This document shows positions 947 to 22,602 of a DNA stretch of 24,000 bases, in pieces (within the stretch, counting starts at the first letter, position 1; every line of letters begins with the position of its first letter). Below the pieces are notes generated by a model that made no database searches, had not been told where the DNA came from, and saw nothing but the letters and a program-made list of their open reading frames with translations. Source of the stretch: Microcoleus sp. BR0-C5 (GTDB lineage: Bacteria; Cyanobacteriota; Cyanobacteriia; Cyanobacteriales; Microcoleaceae); NCBI GenBank assembly GCA_036705045.1, contig JAUBTR010000001.1; one strand, written 5' to 3'. The position numbers were made by a program, and so were the translations under genes.

Positions 947-1399
947 ATGGCAATGTGGCGGCTGTACTATCATTTAGTTTGGGCAACAAAAGAGCGACAG
1001 CCTCTCATATCTCCCGCAAAAGAAACCGAACTTTACTCTTATATCACCGGCAAAGCAGACGCCATCAATTGCATCCTTCATGCGATCGGCGGCACAGAAA
1101 ATCACATCCACTTAATAGTTTCCATTCCTCCGACACAATCGATCGCTGAATTCGTTAAAAATATTAAAGGTAGCAGCAGCCGTTATCTCAATCAAACTTT
1201 GCAAAATCCCAATAAATTTTCGTGGCAAGAAGGATACGGAGTATTTTCTTTAGGACAAAAACAACTAGACTCAGCAGTCGCTTATGTGATAAATCAAAAG
1301 GAACATCACTTGCAAAAAACGACAAACTCACACCTCGAACAAATGACTCATCAAGACGATTCACCCACCCGGTGGCACCCAAATTCACCAGAGAATTAA
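947..1399 (+). CDS. IS200-like Y1 (HUH) transposase, RAYT-like
   Basis: 150 aa. N-terminal YYHLVWATKERQPLI, HUH motif HIHLIV, KGSSSRYLN, and a catalytic-Tyr region WQEGYGVFSLG. AAGGA lies upstream of the ATG. The gene is flanked on both sides by the same palindromic repeat. Confidence 0.8.
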   Translation: MAMWRLYYHLVWATKERQPLISPAKETELYSYITGKADAINCILHAIGGTENHIHLIVSIPPTQSIAEFVKNIKGSSSRYLNQTLQNPNKFSWQEGYGVFSLGQKQLDSAVAYVINQKEHHLQKTTNSHLEQMTHQDDSPTRWHPNSPEN

Positions 1400-1461: not shown

Positions 1462-1652
1462 GATCGGGCTTACCCATAAGCCCGCCGGGGATTGAAATCC
1501 CCGTCTCATAGCAAAAGTCGGTTAAAACCGACTCAACAGCCAAATCAAACGCCCGCCGACTTCAGTCCTCTTTCAGAGGACTTCAGCTATGAGACAGGGA
1601 TTTCAATCCCTGTCGGACTATGAAACTCGCCGATCGACCCCGATCGCACCCA
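1462..1652 (+). repeat. REPIN-like repeat, copy 5 (core 1466-1619 plus partial tail)
   Basis: Same 154-bp core as copies 2-4 with a few substitutions. It lies downstream of the transposase and ends 35-65 bp before the dndD ATG. Confidence 0.85.
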
Positions 1653-1684
1653 CCAACTTTCATCCCATCTCAACAACATCTACA

Positions 1685-3947: not shown

Positions 3948-4349
3948 ATGGAACCACCAGTCGATCGCATCCGCCTCTCCCAAACAGGCAAAGACCAACT
4001 ATCAAAACTGAAACGATCGACCAAAATCGATCAGTGGAACATCCTGTGTCGGTGGGGATTTTGCCGATCGCTCGCCGAACCCAGCATCCCATCCCCAGTA
4101 CCAATTCCCAGCGACAGCAACGTCGAATTAAGCTGGGATGTCTTCGGCGGCGACATGGCCGATATCTTGATAATTGCCCTCAAGCAGCGGTGTCACAAAG
4201 ACAATTTAGGCACTGAAAAAGAAACTCTAGCCAAACAATTTCGCCTGCACTTGCACCGAGGGATTGGTTATTTAGCCGGCGATCCGAATATTAAGAAAAT
4301 CGAAGACTTGGTGGCGATCGCTTTATCGCCTGAAAAATTAAGAAATTAA
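3948..4349 (+). CDS. dndE: DNA sulfur modification protein DndE
   Basis: 133 aa. IRLSQTGKDQLSKLKRSTKIDQWNILCRWGFCRSLAEPSIP ... FRLHLHRGIGYL matches my recollection of the DndE family. Its position directly after dndD supports the call. Confidence 0.75.
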   Translation: MEPPVDRIRLSQTGKDQLSKLKRSTKIDQWNILCRWGFCRSLAEPSIPSPVPIPSDSNVELSWDVFGGDMADILIIALKQRCHKDNLGTEKETLAKQFRLHLHRGIGYLAGDPNIKKIEDLVAIALSPEKLRN

Positions 4350-6362: not shown

Positions 6363-7637
6363 TCATCTTGGTGGGCGACGGTTACGCAAAAACTCAGGAA
6401 TATCCAATCCCAAATCCTGGGGCGGTTTCGCTTTCGGATCGGGTGTCTGTTGAGCAGGAGTCGTCGGCGCAGTTGCAGCCCGCCAAGGAGCATTAACATT
6501 TTGCGTCCGCCCCTGAGGCGGAGGCGACGGAACTTCTCCCGAAAAACCAGTAGCGATCACAGTAATCTTAATTTCGCCCTGAAGCCGCTCGTCAATCACC
6601 GCTCCAAAAATAATATTGGCATTCGGATCGACAACCTCGTAAATCGTCTCAGCCGCCGCATTCACCTCGTGCAGAGTCATGTCAGTACCGCCCGTGATGT
6701 TAAACACCACACCTCTAGCGCCCTCAATAGACGAAGCTTCCAGCAGAGGCGAAGAAATAGCCTGCATCGCAGCCTCCCTAGCCCGCGACTTGCCAGAACC
6801 CACGCCGATGCCCATCAAAGCCGAGCCCGCATCCGCCATTACTGCCCGCACGTCAGCAAAGTCAACATTCACCAAACCGGGAATAGTAATAATGTCAGAA
6901 ATACCCTGAACCCCTTGGCGCAGGATATCATCAGCAACTCGAAAAGCCTCTTGTACCGGCATTTGTTCCGAAATCACAGACAGCAGCTTGTCGTTAGGAA
7001 TTACGATCAGCGTATCCACCCGCGTTTGCAAAGCTGCAATCCCTTCCTCAGCTTGGCTGGTGCGCCGCCGTCCCTCAAACGTAAAAGGCCGCGTTACTAT
7101 GCCCACAGTCAAGGCGCCCATTTCCTTAGCCACCTCAGCCACGATCGGAGCCGCGCCCGTGCCCGTACCGCCGCCCATGCCGGCTGTGATAAATACCAAA
7201 TCCGCATGATTCAGAGCATTAGCAACCTCATCGCGAGATTCCTCCGCAGCCTTTTGACCGATCGCCGGATTGCCCCCCGCCCCCAAACCCCGCGTCAACT
7301 TCTGTCCGACTTGCAAGCGTTTCGGAGCATTTGAAAGAACCAGAGCTTGGGAATCTGTATTCACGCACCAAAACTCGACACCAGAAACCTCGCTAGCAAT
7401 CATCCGGTTAACGGCGTTGCCCCCACCGCCGCCGACGCCAATTACTTTGATTTTGGCAGCACTGCTGGGCATTATGTCTTTGGGATTGACCATAGGATCG
7501 ATATCAATACTATCTACATTTACATAACCAGACTTGCGTCTAAAGGGATTGGCGGAATCTGCCGCCACCGGAAAATTTTTTACTTCTTCCGAAGGGGGAC
7601 TGTCTTGGTCAGACCCCTGTCTATTATTAAGCTTCAT
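6363..7637 (-). CDS. ftsZ: Cell division protein FtsZ
   Basis: 424 aa. [52 protein letters not shown] and a C-terminal DIPEFLRNR peptide. The N-terminal extension is of the cyanobacterial type. Confidence 0.97.
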
Positions 7638-7959: not shown

Positions 7960-9256
7960 CTGTTGACAGAGAATCAATTCTGGGCGCGAGTGGGTGCGGG
8001 AGTTGAACTCTGCTTTGTCAAACTTACCCAAACTTTGCTAAAGCCACCTTTAGCCGCAATTCGGAGTTGACTTCCTGCGCTGTTGGGTGGTCGGCCATCC
8101 CAAGATAAGCAGGCTATCCCCCAATAGCCTTGGGTTCCCAATTTAAAATATTTAAACTGGCATTGAGATCGCGATCTATTGAGGAGCCACAAGCAGGACA
8201 ATCATAAGTCCGAACGCTTAGTGGCATATCTTTTTTATGCCCGCAATTCGCACAAGTCTTAGAACTGGGGAACCATCGATCCACCAGCACTAAATTCGCT
8301 CCATACATTTTGCACTTATAATTTAGCTGCCGCCTGAATTCGTAAAACCCTAAGTCGGATATTGCCCCAGCCAACTTGTGATTTGCCATTATTCCGCTTA
8401 CGTTCAAGTCTTCTATATTGATTGACTTGAAAGTTTTAGCTAAATAAGTCGTTAACTTTTGAAGGAAATCTTTGCGAATGCAAGCTATTCGTGCGTGAAG
8501 TCTGCCGAGCTTGTTGTAAGTTTTGCGCTGATTGTTTGAGGCTTTTATTTGTCTTGATGCCTTGCGCTGCAACCGTGCAAGCTTGGTTTTCGCTTGCTTT
8601 AATGGCTTTGGTGCATCAAACACTTGACTGTTTGACAGGGTAGCAAAATATTTAATACCCACGTCAATCCCTACAGAGCTTTCGGGTTGTTGAATTGGTA
8701 AAAGTTCCGCATCAACACAGAAAGAGACGAACCAGCGATTTCCTTCTTGTGAAATGGTAAAAGTTTGAGAGACAAAACCGCATTCCAGTGGCTCGTGAAG
8801 TCGAAAAGTTCCCAGCGTGGGAATCTTAATGGTGTTGCCAGCAGTTAGTAAAACTTTTCCATTAGACGAATCAACCGTGAATGATTGCCCATCCCGGCGG
8901 CTGGCAAATTTCGGATGATCGGCTTTTCCCAAGCGATACCGACTGAACGCATCTTTCAAGTCTATCAAAGCGTTTTGGTAAACTCGACTGGACAACTGGT
9001 TCATCCAAGCGCATTCAGGTTGTTTCTTGACGTGGTGGGTGAGAACTTTCTTGACTTCGTTGATGACCTTTGAGTCTGAAAAATTGCCCTCACCGTACAT
9101 TTGGACTCGCAAGCTCAATCCCATGTTAAATACTACACGCCGGAATCCTGCGTGTTTTGCCATCAAGGTTGCTTCCCTATTATTCAATTTGAGCGCTCGC
9201 TTGACGGCAAACATGGAACTTCCTCTCAACAATCAACTTTAGATAAGTTTAGCAAA
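7960..9256 (-). mobile_element. TnpB-only IS200/IS605-family element (boundaries approximate) between ftsQ and ftsZ
   Basis: tnpB plus about 150 bp of non-coding tail downstream of its stop. That tail is where the right end and omega RNA scaffold are expected by analogy to characterised TnpB elements. No tnpA is present. The left boundary must lie within 42 bp of the ftsQ stop. The ends were not determined. Confidence 0.55.
8114..9214 (-). CDS. tnpB: TnpB (OrfB) RNA-guided endonuclease, apparently intact
   Basis: RuvC triad contexts GIDVGIKYF, INIEDLNVSG and DRDLNASLNI, with zinc finger CANCGH...CPACG. The ORF-track start at 9232 is a TTG directly after a stop. ATG 9214 (MFAVKRALKLN) has GAGAGGAAG 5-13 nt upstream. 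Confidence 0.9.
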   Translation of the reverse strand: MFAVKRALKLNNREATLMAKHAGFRRVVFNMGLSLRVQMYGEGNFSDSKVINEVKKVLTHHVKKQPECAWMNQLSSRVYQNALIDLKDAFSRYRLGKADHPKFASRRDGQSFTVDSSNGKVLLTAGNTIKIPTLGTFRLHEPLECGFVSQTFTISQEGNRWFVSFCVDAELLPIQQPESSVGIDVGIKYFATLSNSQVFDAPKPLKQAKTKLARLQRKASRQIKASNNQRKTYNKLGRLHARIACIRKDFLQKLTTYLAKTFKSINIEDLNVSGIMANHKLAGAISDLGFYEFRRQLNYKCKMYGANLVLVDRWFPSSKTCANCGHKKDMPLSVRTYDCPACGSSIDRDLNASLNILNWEPKAIGG

Positions 9257-10144
9257 CTATTTAGCAATTAAGTCCGACTCCAAACTGCCGGGGAGTTCTG
9301 GCAAATGGACGATCGGCGAAGCAGGATTTTTCAAGTCAATGTAGGCTATGAGGCTTGAATCTATCTGTTTTGGCAATTGTCGCATTCGGTCTAAAACCTT
9401 AAGTTGCTCCGCAGTCTTGGAACTGTACGGCCCTAAGTGTACGGTACCGATCTCTGTTTTCAAGATCAAGTTGTTCGGGTTTTGCCAATTAATCTCAAAC
9501 ACTTTCACCGTCAAGCCGCTGAGTCCTTGGTAAAACTTCGGCCAAGAGGCGCGATACTGTTCCAAAGGCCCGATGACTTTTAAAGTGGGCAAAGAACGCT
9601 GAGGCTGCGTTCCCGGAATGCTGCCTGGCCCGATCGAACTATTCTGCGATCGTACAGCAGTATAACTATCCGACGGCATCCAACCTCCGCGAGCGTCCAG
9701 CCACCCCACTTTTTCCTTGTCACTGTTCGATCTCAACACCGCCGTCGGCTGCGCCACCGCCACCGGCAGCCGTTCTGCCACTTCTATAGTCAAACTCGGC
9801 GGAAACAAGTTACGAGTCACCTTCGCTTTAGCGATGGGTCCCGTTGACTCCAGCTTTTGGGCCAGCGCCTGCGGTTGAATCCCCCACAGCGACTGCGGGT
9901 AAGACAGCGGCACCAAAGACCGCACCGCCTTATCCGATAGCCACTGATTGCCCTCCACCTTCACTTGTTCCGATCGGGCAATCAACCAAGCCGGCTGCCC
10001 AATCCACCACAGCAAACCTCCGGCGATCGCGCTCGCTGCCAGCATTTGCCACACAACAGCCGCCAATCGAGCGCGACGGAGCTGCCGCAACTTTTGGCGT
10101 CTGCGCCCTAACTCTGTTTGAGAAACCGCTCCAAAACTAGCCAT
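9257..10144 (-). CDS. ftsQ: Cell division protein FtsQ/DivIB
   Basis: 295 aa. A basic N-terminus is followed by one TM helix (AAVVWQMLAASAIAGGLLWWI). A POTRA-like segment follows (VKVEGNQWLSDKAVRSLV...LTIEVAERLPVA). The gene sits upstream of ftsZ on the same strand. Confidence 0.8.
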   Translation of the reverse strand: MASFGAVSQTELGRRRQKLRQLRRARLAAVVWQMLAASAIAGGLLWWIGQPAWLIARSEQVKVEGNQWLSDKAVRSLVPLSYPQSLWGIQPQALAQKLESTGPIAKAKVTRNLFPPSLTIEVAERLPVAVAQPTAVLRSNSDKEKVGWLDARGGWMPSDSYTAVRSQNSSIGPGSIPGTQPQRSLPTLKVIGPLEQYRASWPKFYQGLSGLTVKVFEINWQNPNNLILKTEIGTVHLGPYSSKTAEQLKVLDRMRQLPKQIDSSLIAYIDLKNPASPIVHLPELPGSLESDLIAK

Positions 10145-10481
10145 CTACCTCTTGACAATATAGTAATTAAGCATTAGCACAAATTCAAAACTGTTTAATC
10201 TCTCTCTCTTGAACCCTGTTTTCCCCTACCATTTAACCAGATCCCCGCAAATTTACCCAGACTCCGGCGAATATCAGTAATATCACGGATACCGCTAAGT
10301 AATAAAAAATTATTAATTAAAAATTCCCAATTCCAGCGCCGGGAAAACCCCTTACCAGATCAAGGTTATTTGGGTATTTAGGGCATTACCCCACAGGGCA
10401 AAAGGTTACAAATCAAACTAAACTCAAGTAAAGAAAGTTTAGACTTTCGATTAACTTTTTAACTTTTATTCGGCTTCAATT

Positions 10482-11813
10482 GTGATCGCACTCGAATTAG
10501 ACAGATTCTATAAAGCCTGCAACCCCAGCAAGACCCTTGTTGCGGGAGACCCAGGGGATTATCAATACTACATTGATTTTGGTTCCGTGCGTGGCGGCAA
10601 AATCATTGAATCTTTACAGCGAACCATTACCCGCATCTCCCCCAACGAGCCAACCTGTCAGCTATTTACAGGACATATCGGGTGTGGCAAATCTACGGAA
10701 TTGTTTCGACTAAAAGCTGAGTTAGAGCAAGAGGGTTTTTGCGTCGTCTACTTTGAGTCTTCCCAAGACTTAGACATGGGGGATGTAGATATCAGCGATA
10801 TTTTGCTGAGCATTGCGCGCCAAGTCAGCGAAACTATGGAATCGGCTAAAATCAAACTCAGACCGAGCTATTTTACAAATCTGTTTGCAGAAGTGGCAGA
10901 ATTTTTGCAGACTCCCATAGATTTGTCAGCGGAAGCCGAGTTATCTGTAGGCATTGCTAGAGTGACTGCTAAAACTAAAGACTCTCCCAAACTGCGATCG
11001 CAACTTAGGCAATATCTCGAACCCCGCACCAACAGCATTTTGCAGTCCATCAACGAAGAACTCCTCAACAAAGCTAACGCCGAACTCAAGCAGCAAGGCA
11101 AAAAAGGGCTCGCAGTCATCGTTGACAACCTCGATCGCCTCGATGCCTCCCTCAAACCCAGCGGACGCACCCAGCCAGAATATCTGTTTTTAGACCGAGG
11201 CGAACAGTTGAAAAAACTTAATTGCCATGTTGTCTACACGATTCCCCTGACTTTGATTTTTTCCAACGACTTCGGCCGCCTCGCCAGTCGATTTGGAGTC
11301 AAGCCCAAGGTGATGCCGATGGTACCAGTGCAAGTGCGATCGGGCGACGACCACATTGAAGGAATGGCACTGCTGCGGCAGCTAGTATTAGCTAGAGCTT
11401 TCCCCGCAGTTCCTCCCCATCAACGCATCGATTTGATTTCCCAGGTGTTTGACTCTCCCGAAACTTTAGATCGGCTTTGTCGGATTAGTGGCGGTCACGT
11501 TCGCAATCTACTGATGCTTTTGTATAGCTGTTTGCAGCACGAAGACCCTCCCTTCTCTCGCGAATGCCTCGAAAGCGTCATTCAAGAATATCGCGATGAC
11601 CTTTTGGGAGCCATCAATGACCTGGAATGGGAATTGCTGTTTCAAGTCGTCAACCGACAAAGTGTCACCGGCGAAGAAGAATCTCAAATCTTGTTGCGAA
11701 GTATGTTTGTCTTTGAATACCGCGATCAAGAAGGTCGTTGGTTTGGGATTAATCCAGCCCTAGCAGAAACCAGAAAATATAAGGAGTGGCAGCAGCGCAC
11801 TGAAGCAAAATAG
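10482..11813 (+). CDS. P-loop NTPase, minimal STAND/ORC-like ATPase without a repeat or effector domain
   Basis: 443 aa with a GTG start. Walker A is GHIGCGKST (10671-10697), Walker B is LAVIVDNLDRLD (about 11111-11146), and a sensor/helical region includes ISGGHVRNLLMLL. I saw no TPR, WD40 or enzymatic domain. The family was not identified. Confidence 0.7.
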   Translation: MIALELDRFYKACNPSKTLVAGDPGDYQYYIDFGSVRGGKIIESLQRTITRISPNEPTCQLFTGHIGCGKSTELFRLKAELEQEGFCVVYFESSQDLDMGDVDISDILLSIARQVSETMESAKIKLRPSYFTNLFAEVAEFLQTPIDLSAEAELSVGIARVTAKTKDSPKLRSQLRQYLEPRTNSILQSINEELLNKANAELKQQGKKGLAVIVDNLDRLDASLKPSGRTQPEYLFLDRGEQLKKLNCHVVYTIPLTLIFSNDFGRLASRFGVKPKVMPMVPVQVRSGDDHIEGMALLRQLVLARAFPAVPPHQRIDLISQVFDSPETLDRLCRISGGHVRNLLMLLYSCLQHEDPPFSRECLESVIQEYRDDLLGAINDLEWELLFQVVNRQSVTGEEESQILLRSMFVFEYRDQEGRWFGINPALAETRKYKEWQQRTEAK

Positions 11814-11925
11814 TTGGGATTTTTGAGATAGCTTTGTGACTCTAAGAACCCTTAACCACGAAGGACTTAGAAAGTATTTAACTGAAAACTCATCGCTCAC
11901 ATATCCGAAATCTTACCATCCAATA

Positions 11926-11965
11926 CAGAAATCAGTCAGCGGTTTTTGCCACTGGCTGATTTCTG
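11926..11965 (+). other. 17-bp-arm imperfect hairpin downstream of the 443-aa gene
   Basis: CAGAAATCAGTCAGCGG, loop TTTTTG, then CCACTGGCTGATTTCTG (2 mismatches, one of them a G-U). No T-tract follows, so a terminator role is uncertain. Confidence 0.35.
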
Positions 11966-12384
11966 TTGAATGCTGGCTATAGGCGGTGAATGTTATTGCC
12001 GTGTAAAACTTTGCAGCCACTAAGGACTTTGCCCACTCTCAACTCTGATATCTGCAATGTCAGACCCCCTATGTCTGTTTTTTACCTGTTGCTCTTAATT
12101 TCAACTAATCCTATCCCAGAGGACATTTTTTTTGCGGTTGTGTTAAATGCCTGCTACAGATAAAGCGGACTTGTTTACTAATAGCTAGCCGTCGGTATGA
12201 TCGTGAACTTAGCGGTTGGCTATTTATGATCGGTAGTCCTTCTATATATAGCTGAATCAAAAAATCTAAGGGGACATTAAATTTTTATTGGGAAGTCTAG
12301 CATTCTCTGAGATTGAGAGGTATGATATCTTTACATTAGCTCTAATAACTATGTAAGTATTGATAGAAGAAGTACGGAAAACTA

Positions 12385-12447
12385 CGTATTTATACAGAGA
12401 GAAAGCGCCCAACAGAGACGGGTATCTCTGTAGAAATACGCTTTTTG
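12385..12447 (+). terminator. Terminator- or attenuator-like hairpin about 50 nt upstream of the giant ORF
   Basis: CGTATTTATACAGAGA (12385-12400) pairs with TCTCTGTAGAAATACG (12425-12440) at 15 of 16 positions, followed directly by CTTTTTG. A second ACAGAGA at 12412-18 can pair with the same TCTCTGT, giving alternative folds. Confidence 0.4.
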
Positions 12448-12497
12448 TCAGGAGTGGCGAGGGTTAGGTAATTGATTTATGCAAAAGAGGTGCACCC

Positions 12498-15400
12498 ATG
12501 ACCGATCTAATTAAGGTACAAGAAACTGCCAACTACAACGAGCGATCGCTCAAAACTCTGGTCAGGTCCATCACAATGTCTCAACACCAATTCTCGCTAA
12601 TTTTGGTGCGCTGCAACTACGAGCAGTTGCGGCAACAAATAGCGCAGCGGCTGCGAGAAGTGTCCCCAGTTCCAATTCAAGATCTCGTCCTGCCACCTTC
12701 AGTTAAAACCCTCTACACTACTCTGCTCTCAAGCACTTTCCACGAGGGGTACTCGCCTGTCGGTGCCGCCTCGGCTTTGATGGTATTCGGTTTAGAAACA
12801 GTAGTAGCGATCGACGAACTGATGGCTTCTACCAATCAAGTGCGAGACGAATTTCGCAAAAATTTTTCCTGCCCAGTGATTTTGTGGGTAACAGATGACA
12901 TCGTAACCAAAATGATTCGTCTGGCCCCGGATTTCAAAAGTTGGGCCGCCGCCACAATTAAATTTGAAATGGGCGTTGACGAATTAATTAATTTCCTCGC
13001 TAGGCGGGCCGATACTATATTTAAAATAGGCGAACTCAATCAAGAACTCGCCAGTAGCAACGTCAGCACCATCGCTAATTGTGAGACCTGCGAAACCCAG
13101 TGCGAAAAACGCGGCCTGGAGCGCGAAATCAGCCCTGGAGAACGCTTTCTAACTTTTAACTCAGAGCCTCAAAACCGACGACAATCAGATATCCACTCGT
13201 ATTCGCCGTTGAGTCCCGGCAATACCTTCGATTTGGCGATCGGCTCTTTGCCACGCCGAGAACTAGAATTAGCTTTAAGAGATTTACAAAATCGCGGTGA
13301 AGAATTAGAACCCGCCCTCAAAGCCAGCCTGCAATTCGTTCTCGGTCGAGATTACTATGTCAGCGACCAAACCGAAACTGCCTTAATTCACTACCAAGAA
13401 AGTTTAGTATTTTGGCAGCAGAAAACGGGCCACTGGGAACTGGAAAAGTTGGAACATTCCGAAAACCCAGAAACCTTCTCCTCCTTGTCGAATCCTGTCC
13501 CCAAAATTTTATTTTTAGAGAGAGAAGGCATAGTGCTGTTTCACATAGCCCTGTGTCACCGCTTGCAAGCAGCCAGAAATCCGGTAGCCAACCGCCACCA
13601 CTGGGAACAAGCTTGGATTTGCCTCGAACAATCTAGAAACGCTTTCTCTCTTGCATCACGCCTCGAATTGGTAGCTGAGGTGACAGCACACCTCGGAGAA
13701 GTGCTGCAGCGCCTGAAAGCTTGGGGAGAGTTGCAAGCTTTAGCTGAAAATTCTTTGCAGTTGCACTTCACTTACGGTACTCCCAGCCAACTAGCTCAAG
13801 ATTACGGCTTTTTGGCTGAAGTTGCCCTGCAAGAGTCGAGGTGGAGTCAAGCCCGCCAGCTAGCCGAGTTGGCTTTGGCGATTTTGGATCAAACGCCTAA
13901 TGATTTGAGATTGCTGATTGAAGATTTGAGATTGGGGTTTGAGGGAAATTATCCAGAATTTGTGGGCCCTAACGAGTCAAGTAACGAACTTAAATCTAAA
14001 ATCCAACATCCCAAATCCGACAGGAGTTCGTATCTTTTACTTTTAGCCCGCAGTTTGCGGCAGCTAGGCCAGTGGGAAGCGGCGGTTCATTCTTTGGAGT
14101 TGGCTCAATCTCAAAGCGAGCCGAAGTACGACCCCCGACTTTACATCGATATTTTGACGGAATTGCAAGCGGTTTATTTCGAGCAGGGAGAGTATCTTAA
14201 AGCGTTTCGGATTAAAAAAACCCAGCGTTCGATCGAATATCAATACGGATTTAGAGCTTTTATCGGAGCCAGCCAATTGCAGCAGCAGCGCCAAGCGGTC
14301 AATCCTTCAGGTCCCTCAGCTCAAAACCAAGCTGCCCTCGCAGCGTCCATGACAGCTTACTCGCGCCAAACAGATATCAATAGCTTGCTAGAAAGAATTA
14401 GCAGGGACGACCATAAATTAACTATTATTCACGGGCCCAGCGGAGTCGGGAAAAGTTCTCTAGTCAATGCCGGCTTAGTACCAGCTTTGAAAAATATTAC
14501 TCCGGGCGCGCGCGATACATTGCCCGTATTAGTCAAAGTTTACACTGACTGGCTGGTGGAGTTAGAAAATGCTTTGAACAGCGCACTGTACGACAAACAA
14601 GCCGAAGAGGAAAGTAAATTAATCTCGAAAGGACTACAGGAAATCCACAAAAAAAGTTGCTCGGTTATTCCTGCTCGCAGCTCGGAAGTCTCTTCTTTTA
14701 TTATAGAACAGTTGCGCGAAAATGCCACAAATAATTTGTTAACTGTGCTGATTTTCGATCAATTTGAAGAGTTTTTCTTTGTTTCGACTTCTGTGGCACA
14801 AAGACAACTTTTTTATAATTTTTTGCGTTTGTTTTTGAACTTGCCTTATGTCAAGATAATTCTGTGCTTGCGCGAAGATTATTTGCACTACTTACTAGAT
14901 TGCGATCGCTTCCCAAATCTTGACGCTATTAACAATAATATTCTCGACAAAAGCATCCGCTACCAACTGCGGAGTTTTTCTATCAAAGACGCGCGGGCTG
15001 TCATTGGACACTTAACAGAACGGGCGGAATTTTATTTAGAGCCGGCACTGATCGATGCCTTCGTAGAAGATTTAGCAGACGAACTGCAAGAAGTCCGACC
15101 AATCGAATTGCAGGTAGTAGGAGCGCAACTGCAAGAAGAAGGTATTACCAGTCTAGCACAATACCAGCAATTGGGGGACAATCCCAAAGCGGAATTAGTG
15201 AAACGCTCGCTCGAAAGAGTCATCTCTGACTGCGGGCCCGTTAACGAAGACGCAGCTTGGAAAATCTTGTTTTCCCTAACAGATGAAAGAGGCGTTCGAC
15301 TGATAAAAACCAAACACGAACTCTCGTTAGTTACAGGTCAGCAGCCGGCCGATGCCCGCGAAACCGAATTATCGGCGATCGGCAGAAACAGAATTTCCCT

Positions 15401-17972
15401 ACCGCGACAGTTCGCTGCATACCCTGAAAGCCGACCTAAGAAAACCGACAACCTAGACTTAATTTTAGACATTTTAGTTGGTCACGGTTTGCTATTTCTG
15501 CTACGGGAAGCGCCCGAAGACCGCTATCAATTGGTACACGACTATTTAGTGCGACCTATCCGCCAAAGATTCGGCTTAGAAGCCAGACTGCACAAAGCAG
15601 AAGCAGACAAAAAAATGAGTCAAGCACAGCTCTACCGAGCCAATACTTTTCTCAAACAACTGCTGGGATTAGCAGTGATCGGCGTCATGCTGCTAACCAG
15701 TTCCACCATCGCCGCCGTAAATTTTTGGTGGCGGGCTGTGGGTCAAAAACAGCTAGCTGTCGCTCAAACTCAGCGAGCCGAAATCAGTACCCTGACAGCC
15801 GCTTCGGAAGCACTTTATTTCTCAAACAACAAATTTGACGCCATGATGGAAAGTTTGAGAGCTGGTAAAAAGTGGAAACAGATCGAACACTCCCAACAAA
15901 TGTATACTCTTAAAGATACCGAAATTCTGATTTCTGCCGCCCTCCAGCAGGCAGTTTATGGAGTCAAAGAACGCAACCGCTTGGAAGGACACGGTGATGT
16001 AGTTTGGGGTCTTAGCTTCAGTCCAGACGGCGAAACAATAGCTTCTTCCAGTGTAGATAAAACCGTCAAACTTTGGCGGCGCGACGGCAGTTTGCTGGCA
16101 ACTTTCAAAGACCACACTAACAGTGTCTCCTCTGTCGCGTTCAGTCCCGATAACAAAACCATAGCCTCGGCAAGTTTAGATAAAACTGTCAAAATTTGGC
16201 AAACTGACGGCAGTTTGCTGGCTACTTTCAAAGGCCATACTAATAGCGTTACCAGCGTTGCTTTTAGTTCGGACGGTCAAACGCTCGCCACTGGATCTAC
16301 AGACAAAACTATCAAACTTTGGAAAACCGATGGCACGCTGCTGCGAACGATCGAACAATTTGCTCCCGTAAATTGGCTAAGCTTCAGCCGCGACGGCAAA
16401 ATAATAGCTGTGGCGAGCGATGACGGTACTGTGAAACTGTGGAGTTCTGACGGTAAGTTAATCGCTAATTTGTGGCACAGCGAAAACAGACAACCCTCGA
16501 AAATTTACACCGTCAGTTTCTCCCCCGATGGTGAAACGATCGCCAGTGCGGGTGAAGATAAAACGGTGAAAATCTGGAGCCTCGCTGCACTCAAACACCC
16601 AGCAACAGAAAATTCAACACAAGCAAAAAAAGGTGAACTGCTAACAACTTTGCGGGGACACAGCAAGTGGGTATTTGGTGTCAGTTTCTCCCCCGATGGT
16701 CAAACACTTGCTTCGGGAAGTGCAGACGGGACTGTCAAACTCTGGAGTCTTGCTGGTGTTGGCGACAAACGCCCAACCGATGCTAGCAACATTAAACCAG
16801 AGAGTCGCTTACTGAGAACTTTTGAGGGACACGCCGATCGAGTTACTCAGGTGAGTTTTAGCCCGGAAGGCAAAACCTTGGCTTCGGCAAGTTTTGACAA
16901 AACTATCAGGCTGTGGCGACTCGATGACGTGCCGCTCAAAACCCTCGACGGACACCAAAACCGGGTGCAAGGCGTGAGTTTTAGCCCCGACGGCCAAAGG
17001 CTGGCTTCTGCTTCTACGGACAACACTATCAAACTCTGGAGCCGCACGGGGGTTTTGCTGGAAACCTTGGAAGGACACACTCAGAGAGTCGCCAGCGTCA
17101 GTTTCAGCCCCGACGGCCAGCTACTTGCTTCTGGGAGTTACGACAAAACGGTGAAAGTCTGGAGTTTGACAGAAGATGGCATGAATAATATTCTCCCTTG
17201 TCCTTCGGCTCCCCTATTCCCGTGTTCGCCTTCTGTGCTGTTCACTATCGACGGCCACGCCGACAGCGTGATGAGCGTGAGTTTTAGCCCCGACAGCGAG
17301 GTTCTGGCAACGGCTAGCAAGGATAAGACTGTGAAACTCTGGACTAGAAACGGCAGGTTGATTAAGACTTTGACGGGACACACTGGCTGGGTAACTGGGG
17401 TGACTTTCAGTCCCGACGGCTCGATGCTGGCTTCTGCAAGCGATGATGGTACTCTCAAACTCTGGAATCGGGACGGTCGTTTGCTAAGAACGTTTGAAGG
17501 AGCTCACAACAGTTTTGTGTTGGGGGTTGCTTTTAGCCCTGATGGCAAAATGCTGGCTTCGGCTGGTTACGACAATTCGGTGAAATTGTGGAAGGTAGAT
17601 GGGACTTTGGTGGCGACGCTGCTGAAGGGTTCTAGCGACAGCGTGACTAGCGTTGCTTTTAGCCCGGATGGTTTGTTGGTTGCTTCGGGTAGTTACGATC
17701 ATAAGGTGAAACTGTGGAGCCGCAGCGGGACTTTGCTGAAAACTTTGACGGGTCACAAGGATAGCGTGATGAGTGTGAGTTTTAGCCCGGATGGGAAGGT
17801 TCTGGCTTCTGCTGGCCGGGATAATCGGGTGATTTTGTGGAATTTGGATCTTGATGATTTGCTGGTCAGGGGCTGTGACTGGGTGGGAGATTATCTGAGA
17901 ACTAATCCTAATGTGAGCGATCGCGATCGGCTTCTCTGTGAGGGGGTTGGGGCAAAACCAAATCGATTTTAG
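12498..17972 (+). CDS. Giant STAND protein: unassigned N-terminal module, helical (TPR-like) repeats, nSTAND1-like P-loop NTPase, one hydrophobic helix and 14 WD40 repeats
   Basis: 1824 aa with AAGAGG about 8 nt upstream of the ATG. Walker A is IIHGPSGVGKSSLVNAGLVPAL (about aa 646, nt 14433-14459) and Walker B is VLIFDQFEEFF (about nt 14748-14771). Also present are ILCLREDYL, PIELQVVGAQL and a winged-helix-like RYQLVHDYLVRPI. The hydrophobic helix is LLGLAVIGVMLLTSSTIAAVNFWW (about 15661-15735). Fourteen GH..V..V.FSPDG..LAS.S.D.TVKLW units span 15981 to about 17850, followed by the typical tail LDLDDLLVRGCDWVGDYL. Confidence 0.9.
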   Translation: MTDLIKVQETANYNERSLKTLVRSITMSQHQFSLILVRCNYEQLRQQIAQRLREVSPVPIQDLVLPPSVKTLYTTLLSSTFHEGYSPVGAASALMVFGLETVVAIDELMASTNQVRDEFRKNFSCPVILWVTDDIVTKMIRLAPDFKSWAAATIKFEMGVDELINFLARRADTIFKIGELNQELASSNVSTIANCETCETQCEKRGLEREISPGERFLTFNSEPQNRRQSDIHSYSPLSPGNTFDLAIGSLPRRELELALRDLQNRGEELEPALKASLQFVLGRDYYVSDQTETALIHYQESLVFWQQKTGHWELEKLEHSENPETFSSLSNPVPKILFLEREGIVLFHIALCHRLQAARNPVANRHHWEQAWICLEQSRNAFSLASRLELVAEVTAHLGEVLQRLKAWGELQALAENSLQLHFTYGTPSQLAQDYGFLAEVALQESRWSQARQLAELALAILDQTPNDLRLLIEDLRLGFEGNYPEFVGPNESSNELKSKIQHPKSDRSSYLLLLARSLRQLGQWEAAVHSLELAQSQSEPKYDPRLYIDILTELQAVYFEQGEYLKAFRIKKTQRSIEYQYGFRAFIGASQLQQQRQAVNPSGPSAQNQAALAASMTAYSRQTDINSLLERISRDDHKLTIIHGPSGVGKSSLVNAGLVPALKNITPGARDTLPVLVKVYTDWLVELENALNSALYDKQAEEESKLISKGLQEIHKKSCSVIPARSSEVSSFIIEQLRENATNNLLTVLIFDQFEEFFFVSTSVAQRQLFYNFLRLFLNLPYVKIILCLREDYLHYLLDCDRFPNLDAINNNILDKSIRYQLRSFSIKDARAVIGHLTERAEFYLEPALIDAFVEDLADELQEVRPIELQVVGAQLQEEGITSLAQYQQLGDNPKAELVKRSLERVISDCGPVNEDAAWKILFSLTDERGVRLIKTKHELSLVTGQQPADARETELSAIGRNRISLPRQFAAYPESRPKKTDNLDLILDILVGHGLLFLLREAPEDRYQLVHDYLVRPIRQRFGLEARLHKAEADKKMSQAQLYRANTFLKQLLGLAVIGVMLLTSSTIAAVNFWWRAVGQKQLAVAQTQRAEISTLTAASEALYFSNNKFDAMMESLRAGKKWKQIEHSQQMYTLKDTEILISAALQQAVYGVKERNRLEGHGDVVWGLSFSPDGETIASSSVDKTVKLWRRDGSLLATFKDHTNSVSSVAFSPDNKTIASASLDKTVKIWQTDGSLLATFKGHTNSVTSVAFSSDGQTLATGSTDKTIKLWKTDGTLLRTIEQFAPVNWLSFSRDGKIIAVASDDGTVKLWSSDGKLIANLWHSENRQPSKIYTVSFSPDGETIASAGEDKTVKIWSLAALKHPATENSTQAKKGELLTTLRGHSKWVFGVSFSPDGQTLASGSADGTVKLWSLAGVGDKRPTDASNIKPESRLLRTFEGHADRVTQVSFSPEGKTLASASFDKTIRLWRLDDVPLKTLDGHQNRVQGVSFSPDGQRLASASTDNTIKLWSRTGVLLETLEGHTQRVASVSFSPDGQLLASGSYDKTVKVWSLTEDGMNNILPCPSAPLFPCSPSVLFTIDGHADSVMSVSFSPDSEVLATASKDKTVKLWTRNGRLIKTLTGHTGWVTGVTFSPDGSMLASASDDGTLKLWNRDGRLLRTFEGAHNSFVLGVAFSPDGKMLASAGYDNSVKLWKVDGTLVATLLKGSSDSVTSVAFSPDGLLVASGSYDHKVKLWSRSGTLLKTLTGHKDSVMSVSFSPDGKVLASAGRDNRVILWNLDLDDLLVRGCDWVGDYLRTNPNVSDRDRLLCEGVGAKPNRF

Positions 17973-18143: not shown

Positions 18144-18298
18144 TCTTAAGGCTTCTAATAAGCTCCCTTAGAGCATCTGATTTCGATATCCCGGGTGATT
18201 CGCAGTAAGATTCTAGCTTCTCAAACTATTCATCATTCAGCCTAAAAAATACGCTTTCTTTTATGGAAAAGTATATCTATATGAGCTACAATAATAGC

Positions 18299-19433
18299 AT
18301 GAAAACCTTGAAGTTTAAGCTATATCAAAGCAAGCGGAATAGACACCTCAAGCGAAGTATCAATGCTGCCGGGGTGATCTACAACCATTGCATTGCACTC
18401 CATAAACGGTACTACCGGATGTGGGGAAAGCATTTGACTTGTGCAAAACTTCAATCGCATATTGCCAAACACAGAAAGCGTAAAGCGTTCTGGCAAACGG
18501 TCGGCTCTCAAGCTGTGCAGGATATCTGCCAACGCATCTCGATCGCCTACCAACTGTTTTTTAAGCATCACAAGAAAGGAGTTAGACCGCCCGGATTCAA
18601 GAAAGTTCGCAAATACAAATCGTTCACTCTCAAGCAAGCTGGCTACAAATTCTTAGGCGGCAATCGAATTAAGATTGGGAATCGCGTTTATCAGTATTGG
18701 AATTCCAGAGAGATAGAGGGGACGGTCAAGACGTTAACCATTAAACGCACGACATTAGGAGAGCTATTTATGGTTGTGGTCGTTGACAGCGTTGAAGAAC
18801 CTGAAACCAAAGTCGAGACGAGTAGAATCGCTGGCTTTGATTGCGGCTTAAAAACGTTTCTCACCTGCTCAGATGGAACGAAAATCGAATCACCGCAATT
18901 TCTGAAACAGTCCCTCAACGCTATTAAGAAAGCAAATCGTCAGCATTCCAAAAAACGGAAAGGCTCAGCGAACCGGGAAAGAGCAAGACTCAATCTAGTT
19001 CGCAAGTACTCCTGACGTAGTGAATCGTCGCTCTGATTGGTTCTGGAAATTGGCTCACGAACTAACTGATAAGTTCGACGTGCTGTGCTTTGAGACGTTG
19101 AATCTAAAAGGAATGCAACGACTTTGGGGACGTAAAATCTCAGACCTTGCATGCGGCGAATTTCTCCAAGTTCTCGAATGGGTTGCCAAGAAAAAAAATA
19201 AGCAGGTGATCTTTATTGATCAGTGGTATCCATCATCGAAGACTTGCAATCATTGTGGACACGTCCTACAAAAGTTGGATGTGAATACGAGAGAATGGCG
19301 ATGTCCGTCCTGTCAGAACGTGAACGACAGAGACGAGAATACAGCTAAGAATAACTTGCTTGTTTTCCTTGGTGGGGCATCAACCGTTAAGTTAGGCGAT
19401 GTTAGACAGGCTAGGCCTGCAATCGCTGTCTGA
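18299..19433 (+). pseudogene. tnpB: TnpB (IS200/IS605 family, unrelated to the first copy) disrupted by a 1-nt frameshift near 19005-19013
   Basis: Two ORFs in different frames (18263/18299-19015 and 19020-19433) together give a full TnpB. It starts MKTLKFKLYQSKRNRHLKR. RuvC contexts are GFDCGLKTF, CFETLNLKGM and DRDENTAKNN, with zinc finger CNHCGH...CPSCQ. Deleting one nt around 19010 restores ...RKYPDVVNRRSDWF. Confidence 0.85.
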
Positions 19434-21233: not shown

Positions 21234-21268
21234 GAAGTCAGCAGTCATTAGTCATTAGTTATTAGTCG
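21234..21268. repeat. Heptamer tandem repeat (GTCATTA/TTAGTCA family) x5
   Basis: GAAGTCA GCAGTCA TTAGTCA TTAGTTA TTAGTCG. It starts 5 nt after the cobH stop and overlaps the last codons (LITND*) of the convergent DUF2442 gene. Confidence 0.85.
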
Positions 21269-21580
21269 TTCTGGATTATTTCGATCAGTCTTGCGGTTAA
21301 TTAACCAACTTTCAAACGATCGTTGACTTTCACTGCTGCGTCGGCCGGCTAGCAAACCTTCAACTCCAATATGTTCGTCTAAATCAACCCATTCAATGGC
21401 ATAACCATCTCCAAGTAGCTGCCAATTATGTCTTTCCTCCGGGGTACCGTCCAACAAACGGGGATACCAAGCTAAGGGCACGCTCAAACTGCGACCATCA
21501 ACTAAGTCCACAATTACTTTTTCATCTGTCACCGTGACTTTAATTACGAGGGGTTCTGTTTCAAGGATCAAAGTAGTCAT
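21248..21580 (-). CDS. DUF2442-family small protein
   Basis: MTTLILETEPLVIKVTVTDEKVIVDLVDGRSLSVPLAWYPRLLDGTPEERHNWQLLGDGYAIEWVDLDEHI. I prefer the internal ATG at 21580 to the ORF-track start at 21607. It overlaps the upstream gene by 20 nt. Confidence 0.7.
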   Translation of the reverse strand: MTTLILETEPLVIKVTVTDEKVIVDLVDGRSLSVPLAWYPRLLDGTPEERHNWQLLGDGYAIEWVDLDEHIGVEGLLAGRRSSESQRSFESWLINRKTDRNNPERLITND

Positions 21581-21797
21581 GCCAAGCCTCCAACAATATT
21601 TGTTCATATTCCTCTACAAGACGAGCAATCTGGTTTAATTCATGCTCTTTGAAGCCTCGATTTTTTTCTAGAGATACAGGATTCATCCAAAATTTGGCAA
21701 GTTGCCGATCGCGCTTAACATGAATGTGGGCTGGTTCGCCTGGATCGGAACTAAAAAAGATGAAACTGTAGGGGCCAACCTGAAGAACCGTAGGCAT
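21561..21797 (-). CDS. DUF4160-family small protein
   Basis: 78 aa. MPTVLQVGPYSFIFFSSDPGEPAHIHVKRDRQLAKFWMNPV is typical of DUF4160. The stop lies inside the start region of the DUF2442 gene (…CAT GAC TAC TTT GAT CCT TGA). Confidence 0.7.
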   Translation of the reverse strand: MPTVLQVGPYSFIFFSSDPGEPAHIHVKRDRQLAKFWMNPVSLEKNRGFKEHELNQIARLVEEYEQILLEAWHDYFDP

Positions 21798-21870: not shown

Positions 21871-22602
21871 TTAATAATCAGCGGGCGATCGCCTTTTTAC
21901 ATCTCTGCTTTGATTAGTGCGATCGCGGTCTTTTTTCCTACCTTTTTTAATCTGTTGGCTCATCTCGACAAACAAATCTCTGCGTAAATAAGGATAGTCG
22001 CTCACCCACACGTCACGGCTGGGAATATAAATATCTGAAACTTTGGCAATTCTGCCTAAATCTTCTTGATTTGACATAATTAACATTAAAGCAGCTTGAC
22101 CGGGGACAATTCCTTGGTGATCTTTCCGCAATGGAGCTCGAAGTGTAGTAGTAAATCCGGTTTTGTCACCAACTTCTAAGTTGATGCGCGGTTCTAGGTT
22201 GTCAACTATTACGAGTTGTCCTTTTTGATTGACTGTTTCTTCTTGACTTGTGACTTCATCTGTAATATATATATCCAAAACTCTTCCTTGCCAAAAACCG
22301 CAGTATTGATATTTGCGACATTCTGCATTCCGCAAACTCGCCCACAGAATTGGCCCCCACAGCCAGTACAAACCAGCTATCAATCCGGTGATTAAAACTA
22401 GCGGCGCGACATCGGAACCGGCGAAGTTATAAACTACCAGGAGGAAAACTACGCTGACTGCAGATATTAACATTCGCCTCAAAAAATCGGGCGGTTTTCC
22501 CCAGATATATTTGTATTGCGCTCCCGTGGCGACGGCGGGAATTAGTTCTTGAAAGGTTTCGCGGGTTAAGGGAATTAGCATAGGAAGTTTGGCAACGAGC
22601 AA
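21871..22602 (-). CDS. Conserved hypothetical membrane protein (two central TM helices, basic C-terminal tail)
   Basis: 243-aa ORF. Hydrophobic segments are MLISAVSVVFLLVVYNF and APLVLITGLIAGLYWLWGPILWA, with a K/R-rich C-terminus. No family was recognised. The start could be Met8. Confidence 0.55.
   Translation of the reverse strand: MLVAKLPMLIPLTRETFQELIPAVATGAQYKYIWGKPPDFLRRMLISAVSVVFLLVVYNFAGSDVAPLVLITGLIAGLYWLWGPILWASLRNAECRKYQYCGFWQGRVLDIYITDEVTSQEETVNQKGQLVIVDNLEPRINLEVGDKTGFTTTLRAPLRKDHQGIVPGQAALMLIMSNQEDLGRIAKVSDIYIPSRDVWVSDYPYLRRDLFVEMSQQIKKGRKKDRDRTNQSRDVKRRSPADY

Follow-up and report, generated by a model that had tools for sequence, protein, structure and literature searches.

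The described systems closest to the locus treated here are the nSTAND1 systems of Kaur, Iyer, Burroughs, and Aravind (2021, PMC8195603), which carry an N-terminal Death-like domain, EAD, or enzymatic effector and are variable and mobile. A conflict/apoptosis network of NLR-like domains in multicellular bacteria has been drawn up around such proteins (PMC8195603, PMC7159879). The locus lies in a stretch of 24,000 nucleotides from the cyanobacterium Microcoleus sp. BR0-C5 (assembly GCA_036705045.1, contig JAUBTR010000001.1), and this whole stretch is called the window below. It consists of two co-oriented genes, one for a small P-loop ATPase and one for a giant STAND protein, standing beside ftsQ and ftsZ. 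The reading that we prefer, held tentatively, is that it is the core copy of a transmembrane STAND switch of two components, one that would sense an endogenous envelope or division-linked cue and that appears to be widespread in cyanobacteria. With the nSTAND1 systems the giant shares a clear nSTAND1 module, the STAND layout with C-terminal repeats, and a family enriched in multicellular bacteria. In contrast to those systems, it begins with an unclassified alpha/beta domain and TPRs, has a conserved transmembrane-like helix before the sensor, is accompanied by a near-constant second ATPase gene, and occupies a fixed, slowly evolving locus by ftsQ-ftsZ. The N-terminal Death-like domain, EAD or effector, or the adjacent EAD-effector gene, that marks an nSTAND1 system is missing, and the neighbours are instead ftsQ, a TPM-domain gene, and cobH.

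The closest described analogue with two STAND proteins is the nSTAND2 two-gene operon (Kaur et al. 2021, Fig. 6C, PMC8195603), both products of which are STAND-like NTPases. That operon encodes two nSTAND2 proteins, is mobile, and goes with GT4 effectors, whereas the present locus combines a KAP/ORC-like ATPase with an nSTAND1 giant, is core, and has no recognisable effector. The tripartite arrangement of N-terminal module, NTPase switch, and repeat sensor is shared with Avs and bacterial NACHT proteins; unlike these, the present pair has no effector domain, gives no PADLOC match to Avs or NACHT, and does not lie in a defence island. The patchy, horizontally transferred, diversifying-sensor pattern of Avs and NACHT proteins is not found at this locus, although plasmid paralogues do show mobility. 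Apaf-1 also has a STAND NTPase followed by WD40 repeats sufficient for two beta-propellers, its sensor is likewise conserved and non-diversifying, suggesting an endogenous ligand, and Apaf-1 and CED-4 are among the fold matches of the small ATPase. The giant differs from Apaf-1 in having nSTAND1 instead of NB-ARC, no CARD or caspase, and a membrane helix between the NTPase and the propellers, and it is joined by a separate second ATPase that synteny suggests to be required. Among the hallmarks of an Apaf-1-like apoptosome (NB-ARC, CARD/caspase, and two propellers), only the repeat count agrees. In a 2026 survey (PMC13581612), prokaryotic STANDs are placed in 589 clades, 198 of them defence-associated, and Apaf-1-like WD40 sensors are noted in cyanobacteria; term searches of its text did not find the present module. 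Literature searches that included work on KAP, WD40, and STAND proteins and on cyanobacterial division found no paper on the gene pair or on the presumed PCC 7120 genes all3855/all3856. We presume all3856 and all3855 to be the pair of Anabaena PCC 7120 from the gene order of locus L001, with all3854 as psbO.

Conservation of the Locus

A scan of one genome per GTDB species yielded at least 598 loci, and the analysis used the best 80 of them. Neighbours were scored on these 80 loci by tblastn with the window proteins, the giant being counted where the downstream sequence reached 2.5 kb and ftsQ where enough upstream sequence was present. The small ATPase is 67-99% identical across the 80 species loci, and Microcoleus sp. 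Pol14C6 is the closest among these best 80 of at least 598 (99%). The small gene is followed by the giant at 72 of the 73 informative loci, the orthologues of the giant measuring 1598-1909 aa (amino acids) with the same order of parts, and ftsQ lies divergently upstream in 72 of 75 (median gap 645 bp). The syntenic loci cover Microcoleaceae, Trichodesmium, Lyngbya, Coleofasciculaceae, and Nostocales, and the named genera are mostly filamentous; some labels of metagenome-assembled genomes (MAGs), e.g., ‘Chroococcales’ and ‘Obscuribacterales’, are probably unreliable. A four-gene block, with ftsQ and ftsZ running in one direction and the small gene and the giant in the other, is seen in three gene maps, those of Kamptonema, of a genome of Nostocales, and of MAGs resembling Microcoleus. 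Homologues of the small protein number in the thousands; identity to it is 69% or more throughout the top 120, which come from Oscillatoriales, Trichodesmium, Leptolyngbyaceae, and Nostocales. The gene 3′ of the giant varies: Microcoleaceae have TPM/cobH there, Nostocales a psbO-type MSP, and Kamptonema a molybdopterin oxidoreductase. The sole informative species locus without a giant is a Trichodesmium MAG contig (L043, small gene at 2010-3326), where none turned up in about 5 kb downstream of the small gene; its absence could be due to loss, to rearrangement, or to faulty assembly of the MAG.

A neighbour-joining tree of the small ATPase groups all ftsQ-linked copies in a single clade whose internal order is that of taxonomy; two unlinked Coleofasciculaceae/Allocoleopsis loci are nested in this clade, and the remaining unlinked copies, plasmid and orphan ones among them, branch elsewhere in the tree. 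The locus is a vertically inherited core block. A preliminary description, made from the sequence alone before any database search, had taken TnpB genes on both sides as the mark of an accessory insertion, a view that had to be given up. In L009, a relative with 99% identity, both TnpBs of the window are absent, the ftsZ-ftsQ gap being 400 bp and the giant-TPM gap about 200 bp, so that the TnpBs are recent intergenic insertions and not the edges of an island. The block is the same in relatives without TnpBs and the base composition is unremarkable (GC content of 0.42-0.52 across the gene pair, the same as in the flanks), by which an accessory island was rejected. A viral origin was rejected as well, there being no relatives on IMG/VR viral contigs. 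The same description had staked its proposal on orthologues being syntenic in other genomes and on the giant not being a degraded paralogue; the pair is syntenic, and the giant is intact.

The locus is constrained in the manner of housekeeping genes. Between the Microcoleus window and Nostocales, the identity is 69-71% for the small ATPase, 67-72% for FtsZ, and 37-48% for FtsQ; in the giant it is 36-45% for the N-terminal domain (N-domain), 35-42% for the TPR region, 42-49% for nSTAND1, and 45-54% for WD40. Ratios of nonsynonymous to synonymous substitution rates (dN/dS) were obtained by the Nei-Gojobori method in four comparisons with dS from 0.1 to >1. The small ATPase gave 0.04-0.08, compared with 0.05-0.09 for ftsZ and 0.16-0.26 for ftsQ. 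In the giant, the values are 0.08-0.14 for nSTAND1 and 0.11-0.13 for the WD40 region, which is not hypervariable. In the three comparisons within Microcoleus, the minimum of the giant is in the linker with the transmembrane-like helix, at 0.02-0.08; against Kamptonema this region gave 0.10. The N-domain gave 0.12-0.40, the top value coming from the least diverged and noisiest pair; per-domain values of the giant (0.08-0.4) are smallest in the longer comparisons. The pair is under FtsZ-like purifying selection and shows nothing like the diversifying sensors of immune NLRs, and the giant is constrained, not a decaying paralogue. Such selection on a sensor that is not diversifying argues against a typical anti-phage sensor for the core copy.

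Linkage of the Two Genes

Distant homologues were collected by a search without a word index, which gave 395 cluster representatives at E < 1e-30, and seven distant representatives were examined. The pair is adjacent in five of these seven lineages, down to 35% identity of the small ATPase. In four of them, with the small ATPase at 52% (L089), 43% (L091, a MAG labelled Crocosphaera), 40% (L107), and 39% (L109), the giant has N-domain, TPR, nSTAND1, and WD40. In the fifth (L094, 3866-9519, 35%), the giant is GC-rich, apparently non-cyanobacterial, and consists of N-domain, nSTAND1, transmembrane helix, and HEAT-like ‘ADPSLARPAFD’ repeats in place of WD40. Paralogues of the small ATPase, with 24-65% identity, were found on ten plasmids, and the whole pair is present in all three that were inspected, namely the conjugative Acaryochloris plasmid pMB06 (L111, 1015-16390), Nostoc ATCC 53789 pNsp_c (L112, an intact pair whose giant is misannotated as ‘ribosome assembly protein 4’), and Calothrix NIES-4101 plasmid4 (L113). 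Paralogues thus reach unicellular Acaryochloris as well as the MAG labelled Crocosphaera. All paired giants retain N-domain and nSTAND1, even where HEAT-like repeats replace WD40. Two orphan copies of the small ATPase are known from the survey: one in Microcoleus vaginatus (L095, 10001-11365; 454 aa, 65% identical) adjoins the shikimate dehydrogenase gene aroE and has no nSTAND1 partner, and one in Pseudanabaena (L105) adjoins dciA.

In L094 and L111 the two called genes share 4 bp, and in L091 and L109 gaps of 14 and 16 bp, respectively, lie between them, so that overlapping or near-abutting open reading frames (ORFs) would make the two genes translationally coupled in other lineages. Because the pair is adjacent in 72 of 73 species loci and in five of seven distant lineages, with some genes overlapping or 14-16 bp apart, the evidence supports one functionally linked two-NTPase module, as the preliminary description had supposed from adjacency in the window.

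The spacer of 684 bp between the two genes in the window is 91% identical to that of L009, and mere fragments align to L028 or L006; it is lineage-specific, with roughly neutral divergence in Microcoleus. It contains eight terminator-like hairpins against a shuffle mean of 2.3. An RNA or regulatory element was considered and rejected, as the spacer has no Rfam match, its promoter-like sites do not exceed the shuffled expectation, and its divergence is roughly neutral. In other lineages, the distance from the end of the small gene to the first N-domain match in tblastn ranges from -24 to about 1040 bp (median about 380). The intergenic region between ftsQ and the small gene matches L009 and L017 at 95% identity and, along its entire length, L028 and L006 at 72-73%.

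The Small ATPase

Both proteins have the intact P-loop motifs that were first recognised by eye, and the ORFs and motif positions agree (Table 1). The small protein has a Walker B motif of the KAP-like D-x-L-D type, in which the Asp is not immediately followed by Glu. In a 98-sequence alignment of the small-ATPase family, G64, G67, G69, and K70 of Walker A are at least 90% conserved, and D215 and L217 of Walker B are near-invariant. KAP_NTPase (PF07693) matches the small protein by a narrow margin, at 24.3 bits against a gathering cutoff of 20 (E 2.2e-5), and is annotated in many of its orthologues; the Pfam matches to ATPase_2, AAA_22, and AAA_16 are sub-threshold. The AlphaFold2 (AF2) model (pLDDT 96.2, pTM 0.94) comprises a P-loop alpha/beta core, a helical insert, a helical lid, and a C-terminal winged helix with a beta-hairpin, the insert being a soluble stretch of about 100 aa (aa 104-204) between Walker A and Walker B. 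Foldseek against PDB places Orc4, Cdc6, Orc1, the archaeal ATPase_2 proteins PAB2304 and SSO1545, Apaf-1, CED-4, TnsC, and RdrA on top, with E from 2e-6 to 1e-3, but with TM-scores of only about 0.3-0.4. No transmembrane helix was detected in the small protein, whose best 19-residue window has a summed Hessa-scale energy of +9.1 kcal/mol.

As modelled, the small protein is a soluble KAP/ORC-Cdc6-like AAA+ ATPase that has a winged helix and no transmembrane helix, which is more precise than the earlier term ‘minimal STAND-like ATPase’. That it lacks repeats and has NTPase and helical modules was already seen in the preliminary description; the winged helix and the KAP_NTPase match above cutoff are new. 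In proteins of the STAND class (Leipe et al. 2004), the NTPase core leads into a helical lid and then a winged-helix domain, and the AF2 model of the small protein has all three. With the KAP family the small ATPase shares, besides the Pfam match, a Walker B of the D-x-L-D-R type and the position of the helical insert, and the PDB entry ‘KAP NTPase’ 8fnu is a profile match, among its closest solved sequence relatives. KAP NTPases reportedly carry transmembrane helices inserted within the P-loop domain. In contrast, the NTPase domain of the small ATPase has none, the whole protein is 443 aa long, and the best fold matches are ORC/Cdc6 and archaeal ATPase_2 proteins. RdrA rings of RADAR (RdrA/RdrB) are fold matches too, but an RdrB-like adenosine deaminase is absent from among the window genes, the partner here being the nSTAND1 giant.

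Members of the small-ATPase family are fused to TIR_2 (P0277, E 1e-30), to CHAT + TRADD-N (P0295), or to a second STAND-like ATPase (P0246, P0260, and P0290), and relatives in P0245 and P0248 have an N-terminal extension of about 550 aa without a Pfam match, vWA-like by eye. Such fusions tie the family to the apoptosis/immunity domain network. The second ATPase of P0260 and P0290 resembles nSTAND1 at an hhalign E of 9e-4 (probability 24%) and a sub-cutoff Pfam E of 1e-4, and these Rosetta-stone fusions are weak support for a link between the small ATPase and nSTAND1.

Domain Architecture of the Giant

From its N-terminus, the giant consists of the N-domain, a disordered linker, a TPR solenoid, the nSTAND1 NTPase, a transmembrane-like helix, and 14 WD40 repeats. 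Its nSTAND1 character, single transmembrane-like helix, repeat number, and STAND layout without a recognisable executioner were all anticipated in the preliminary description and are borne out by Pfam PF20703, a hydrophobicity scan, the motif count, NCBIfam, and PADLOC. The N-terminal module, there termed ‘variable’, is instead a conserved family-specific domain followed by TPRs. In the AF2 model of aa 1-620 (mean pLDDT 80), the N-domain has a long helix, alpha0, followed by five beta-alpha units, and no P-loop; aa 180-250 form a low-confidence, disordered linker. Pfam gave nothing at E ≤ 1 for aa 1-220, PDB sequence and profile searches of the N-domain were also empty, and among 24 N-domain orthologues no family was common to more than four. 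An inactive copy of either ATPase was rejected, as hhalign against the small-ATPase and nSTAND1 profiles gave probabilities of <1%. The modelled layout fits an AAA+-like or flavodoxin-like core, and the domain stays unclassified. It contains the conserved motifs FSLILVRCNY, NQxRD, FPxxLW, and LAPDFKSWA, and the residues F32, L34, N113, R116, P126, P144, D145, S148, and W149 are invariant, stand-alone versions included.

The N-domain is present in every paired giant, distant and plasmid copies included, and it also occurs as stand-alone proteins of about 165 aa (L097-L104, gene at ~8001-8498). In two lineages, a gene for an RlaP (PF10127) nucleotidyltransferase (~8614-9389) follows the stand-alone N-domain gene at about 115 bp on the 3′ side; the two look like an uncharacterised conserved gene pair. 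As for the giant, ‘effector-less’ means that no effector is recognised, and the N-domain could serve as an adaptor, bind a ligand, or be an enzyme that has escaped recognition.

The TPR_12 matches lie within aa ~396-540, and the best Foldseek matches of the solenoid are the TPR domains of LGN/Pins and kinesin light chain. Scores for nSTAND1, TPR_12, and NACHT come from a separate Pfam scan of the N-terminal 1150 aa of the giant. Both Walker motifs are conserved in a 77-sequence consensus, and precomputed matches annotate nSTAND1 in giant orthologues too. NACHT (14.3 bits against a cutoff of 26.7) and nSTAND3 are sub-threshold in the giant, and there is no Pfam match to NB-ARC or CARD in either protein. 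Pfam, NCBIfam, and PADLOC detected no caspase/CHAT, TIR, nuclease, protease, or pore-former in the small protein or the giant; PADLOC gave only weak P-loop matches (PDC-S20 at 1e-4, mad8, and LmuB) and one WD40-driven match for the two proteins. The conserved block of ftsZ, ftsQ, small gene, and giant contains no effector gene.

The transmembrane-like helix of the window giant, scored over aa 1055-1073, has a summed Hessa-scale energy of -0.14 kcal/mol. In most of 72 giant ORFs scanned, a hydrophobic helix follows Walker A by 364-445 residues; in about eight, which are truncated ORFs or a few Nostocales members, the best hydrophobic window is elsewhere. The helix is kept in position and not in sequence, and every distant or plasmid giant that was checked has it, the variant with HEAT-like repeats among them; in six representative or distant giants the energies range from -2.1 to +2.5. 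The NTPase needs cytoplasmic nucleotide, and a spanning helix would thus put the repeat sensor outside the cytoplasm, making the WD40 region extracytoplasmic if the helix spans the membrane. Pfam finds 14 repeat stretches in this region and the motif count gives 14 ‘V..V.FSPDG’ units (aa 1169-1766), which would be enough for two seven-bladed propellers.

A Possible Mechanism and Its Alternatives

In the proposed mechanism, the giant would be a single-pass membrane protein whose N-domain, TPR platform, and nSTAND1 module are cytoplasmic and whose WD40 region lies beyond the membrane helix. A cue located across the membrane, in periplasm or envelope, would be recognised by the propellers, and this binding would license a nucleotide-dependent oligomerisation of the nSTAND1 module. 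Oligomerisation would cluster the N-domain/TPR platform, which would then engage the small ATPase, acting either as output or as loader/regulator. At the loci examined, the giants have the small ATPase as their constant partner gene. The analysis shows the domain anatomy, the linkage of the genes, their synteny, their phylogeny, and the selection on them; in this scheme we infer the membrane topology, the interaction of the two proteins, the cue, and the output. The fixed position by ftsQ-ftsZ and the FtsZ-like constraint on a non-diversifying sensor point to a cue that is most likely endogenous, for instance the condition of envelope, septum, or division site. The output would most likely be physiological, with the switch either controlling division, septum, or the integrity of the filament or making a conserved decision on regulated death, and strain-specific phage recognition by the core copy seems unlikely.

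Several observations weigh against this proposal. The set of the best 80 loci is biased toward close orthologues, the link with ftsQ-ftsZ is suggested by adjacency, and ftsQ is no longer linked in L065, L069, and L084 or in any paralogue. The helix of the giant is marginal in Nostocales (+2.5 kcal/mol), and the counts of Lys and Arg on its two sides are balanced, so that its orientation is not readable from sequence and the topology is ambiguous. The nSTAND1 family (PF20703) itself takes its definition from predicted counter-invader systems (Kaur et al. 2021, PMC8195603). Hallmarks of conflict systems are found in the wider family, in the TIR or CHAT + TRADD-N fusions and in the plasmid pMB06, where the pair comes directly after CHAT, NB-ARC, TIR, and TPR genes.

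These last observations also favour an alternative that we regard as unlikely, though it deserves weight, in which the pair is a conserved NLR-type anti-phage or abortive-infection system whose effector is encoded elsewhere and recruited via the N-domain, or whose N-domain is an unrecognised enzyme or nucleotide-signal receptor. Such a role would agree with the sequence kinship between the small ATPase and 8fnu, a KAP NTPase, with the RdrA rings among its fold matches, and with the invariant polar residues N113, R116, D145, and S148 of the N-domain, and the stand-alone N-domain proteins resemble the logic of EADs (PMC7159879). However, in the two lineages examined those stand-alone proteins precede the RlaP gene and show no effector fusion, the neighbours of the conserved effector-free block are housekeeping genes, and PADLOC gives no system match beyond weak P-loop or WD40 resemblance; a fixed chromosomal position, vertical inheritance, and purifying selection on the sensor on a par with housekeeping genes also speak against an immune system. 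The plasmid pairs and the distant pairs, which function away from ftsQ, raise instead the prospect of a housekeeping signalling or scaffolding module unrelated to division, the adjacency to ftsQ-ftsZ being frozen synteny. Within the orthologous clade itself, L065 and L084 keep the pair and L069 keeps the small gene after the linkage is lost, and no known division-related domain occurs in either protein. Gene order is otherwise poorly kept here, as the gene downstream of the giant varies by family, yet the four-gene block survives across orders, and we consider simple frozen synteny improbable. Functional independence of the two neighbouring genes would be suggested by the spacer, with its terminator-like hairpins and neutral evolution in Microcoleus, and by the orphan copies L095 and L105. 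It is contradicted by an adjacency that persists from 99% to 35% identity, translationally coupled and plasmid cases included, and by the co-occurring giant always having the same N-domain and nSTAND1 core, which makes independence very improbable indeed.

An extension of the endogenous-cue proposal, bolder and on balance doubtful, is a core transmembrane NLR-like receptor of filamentous cyanobacteria, as conserved as FtsZ and working with a dedicated KAP/ORC-like ATPase, that would report envelope or septal status either to the machinery of division or to a decision on regulated cell death. If true, it would represent a housekeeping ‘apoptosome-like’ checkpoint of bacterial multicellularity, from which the effector-linked, immune-type paralogues on plasmids would have been derived, or the reverse. 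STAND/WD40 giants, of which a multicellular cyanobacterium has many, are usually dismissed as variable ‘conflict’ genes; here one of them, with its partner, has a fixed locus and housekeeping-like constraint and occurs in every named genus sampled, most of these being filamentous. If the pair monitors envelope or septum, it would define a new type of transmembrane NLR-like receptor in bacteria and would provide a handle on the control of division, filament integrity, or cell death; if its role is immune, it would be an unusual example of an NLR-type system that has become a fixed core gene in several orders of cyanobacteria. The analysis also defines an unclassified N-terminal domain family, a branch of KAP-like ATPases without transmembrane helices, and the gene pair of stand-alone N-domain and RlaP.

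Features of the Window

The coordinates of the two genes, of the parts of their products, and of neighbouring features are collected in Table 1.

Table 1. Positions of the gene pair, its encoded domains and motifs, and adjacent features in the window.
Feature	Position	Strand	Remarks
Small ATPase gene	10482..11813	+	443 aa, GTG start; ORF list
Walker A, small ATPase, GHIGCGKST, aa 64-72	10671..10697	+	Motif position
Walker B, small ATPase, AVIVDNLD, aa 211-218	11112..11135	+	KAP-like D-x-L-D type
Spacer between small ATPase gene and giant gene	11814..12497		684 bp
Giant STAND gene	12498..17972	+	1824 aa; ORF list and Pfam
N-terminal alpha/beta domain, aa 1-176	12498..13025	+	Family-specific; AF2 pLDDT ~90-96 over aa 11-170
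TPR-like alpha-solenoid, aa 251-582	13248..14243	+	Pfam TPR_12 E 1e-11; AF2 helices
nSTAND1 NTPase module, aa 621-969	14358..15404	+	PF20703 E 1.9e-30, 107.2 bits vs cutoff 27.1
Walker A, giant, GPSGVGKSS, aa 646-654	14433..14459	+	
Walker B, giant, VLIFDQFEE, aa 750-758	14745..14771	+	
Single transmembrane-like helix, aa 1055-1077	15660..15728	+	Between NTPase and WD40 region
14 WD40 repeats	15960..17867	+	Pfam 14 stretches, E 6e-171
Divergent intergenic region	10145..10481		Common to ftsQ and small ATPase gene
ftsQ (POTRA_1)	9257..10144	-	Conserved divergent neighbour of small ATPase gene
ftsZ	6363..7637	-	Member of conserved four-gene block
TnpB, intact	8114..9232	-	Between ftsZ and ftsQ; IS200/IS605-type
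TnpB 3′ of giant	18263..19433	+	Split into 250-aa and 137-aa ORFs; IS200/IS605-type
IS200 Y1 transposase	947..1399	+	Third IS200/IS605-type element of window

The neighbours are those named in the preliminary description, ftsQ upstream, the TPM-domain gene and cobH downstream of the giant, and TnpB on both sides. The split downstream TnpB is probably a frameshifted pseudogene. Near the left end of the window, genes for a DndD-like SMC/AAA_23 ATPase (697 aa, 1589-3682, + strand) and for DndE (E 5.7e-44, 3948-4349, + strand) make up the end of a dnd cluster for DNA phosphorothioation. Both genes are also present in the relative L007, and a lipoxygenase region takes their place in L006 and L008; the sequence upstream of thiD is therefore strain-variable. 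Between cobH and dapB, the window encodes a DUF2442 protein (21248-21607, - strand) and a 243-aa ORF (21871-22602, - strand) without a Pfam match.

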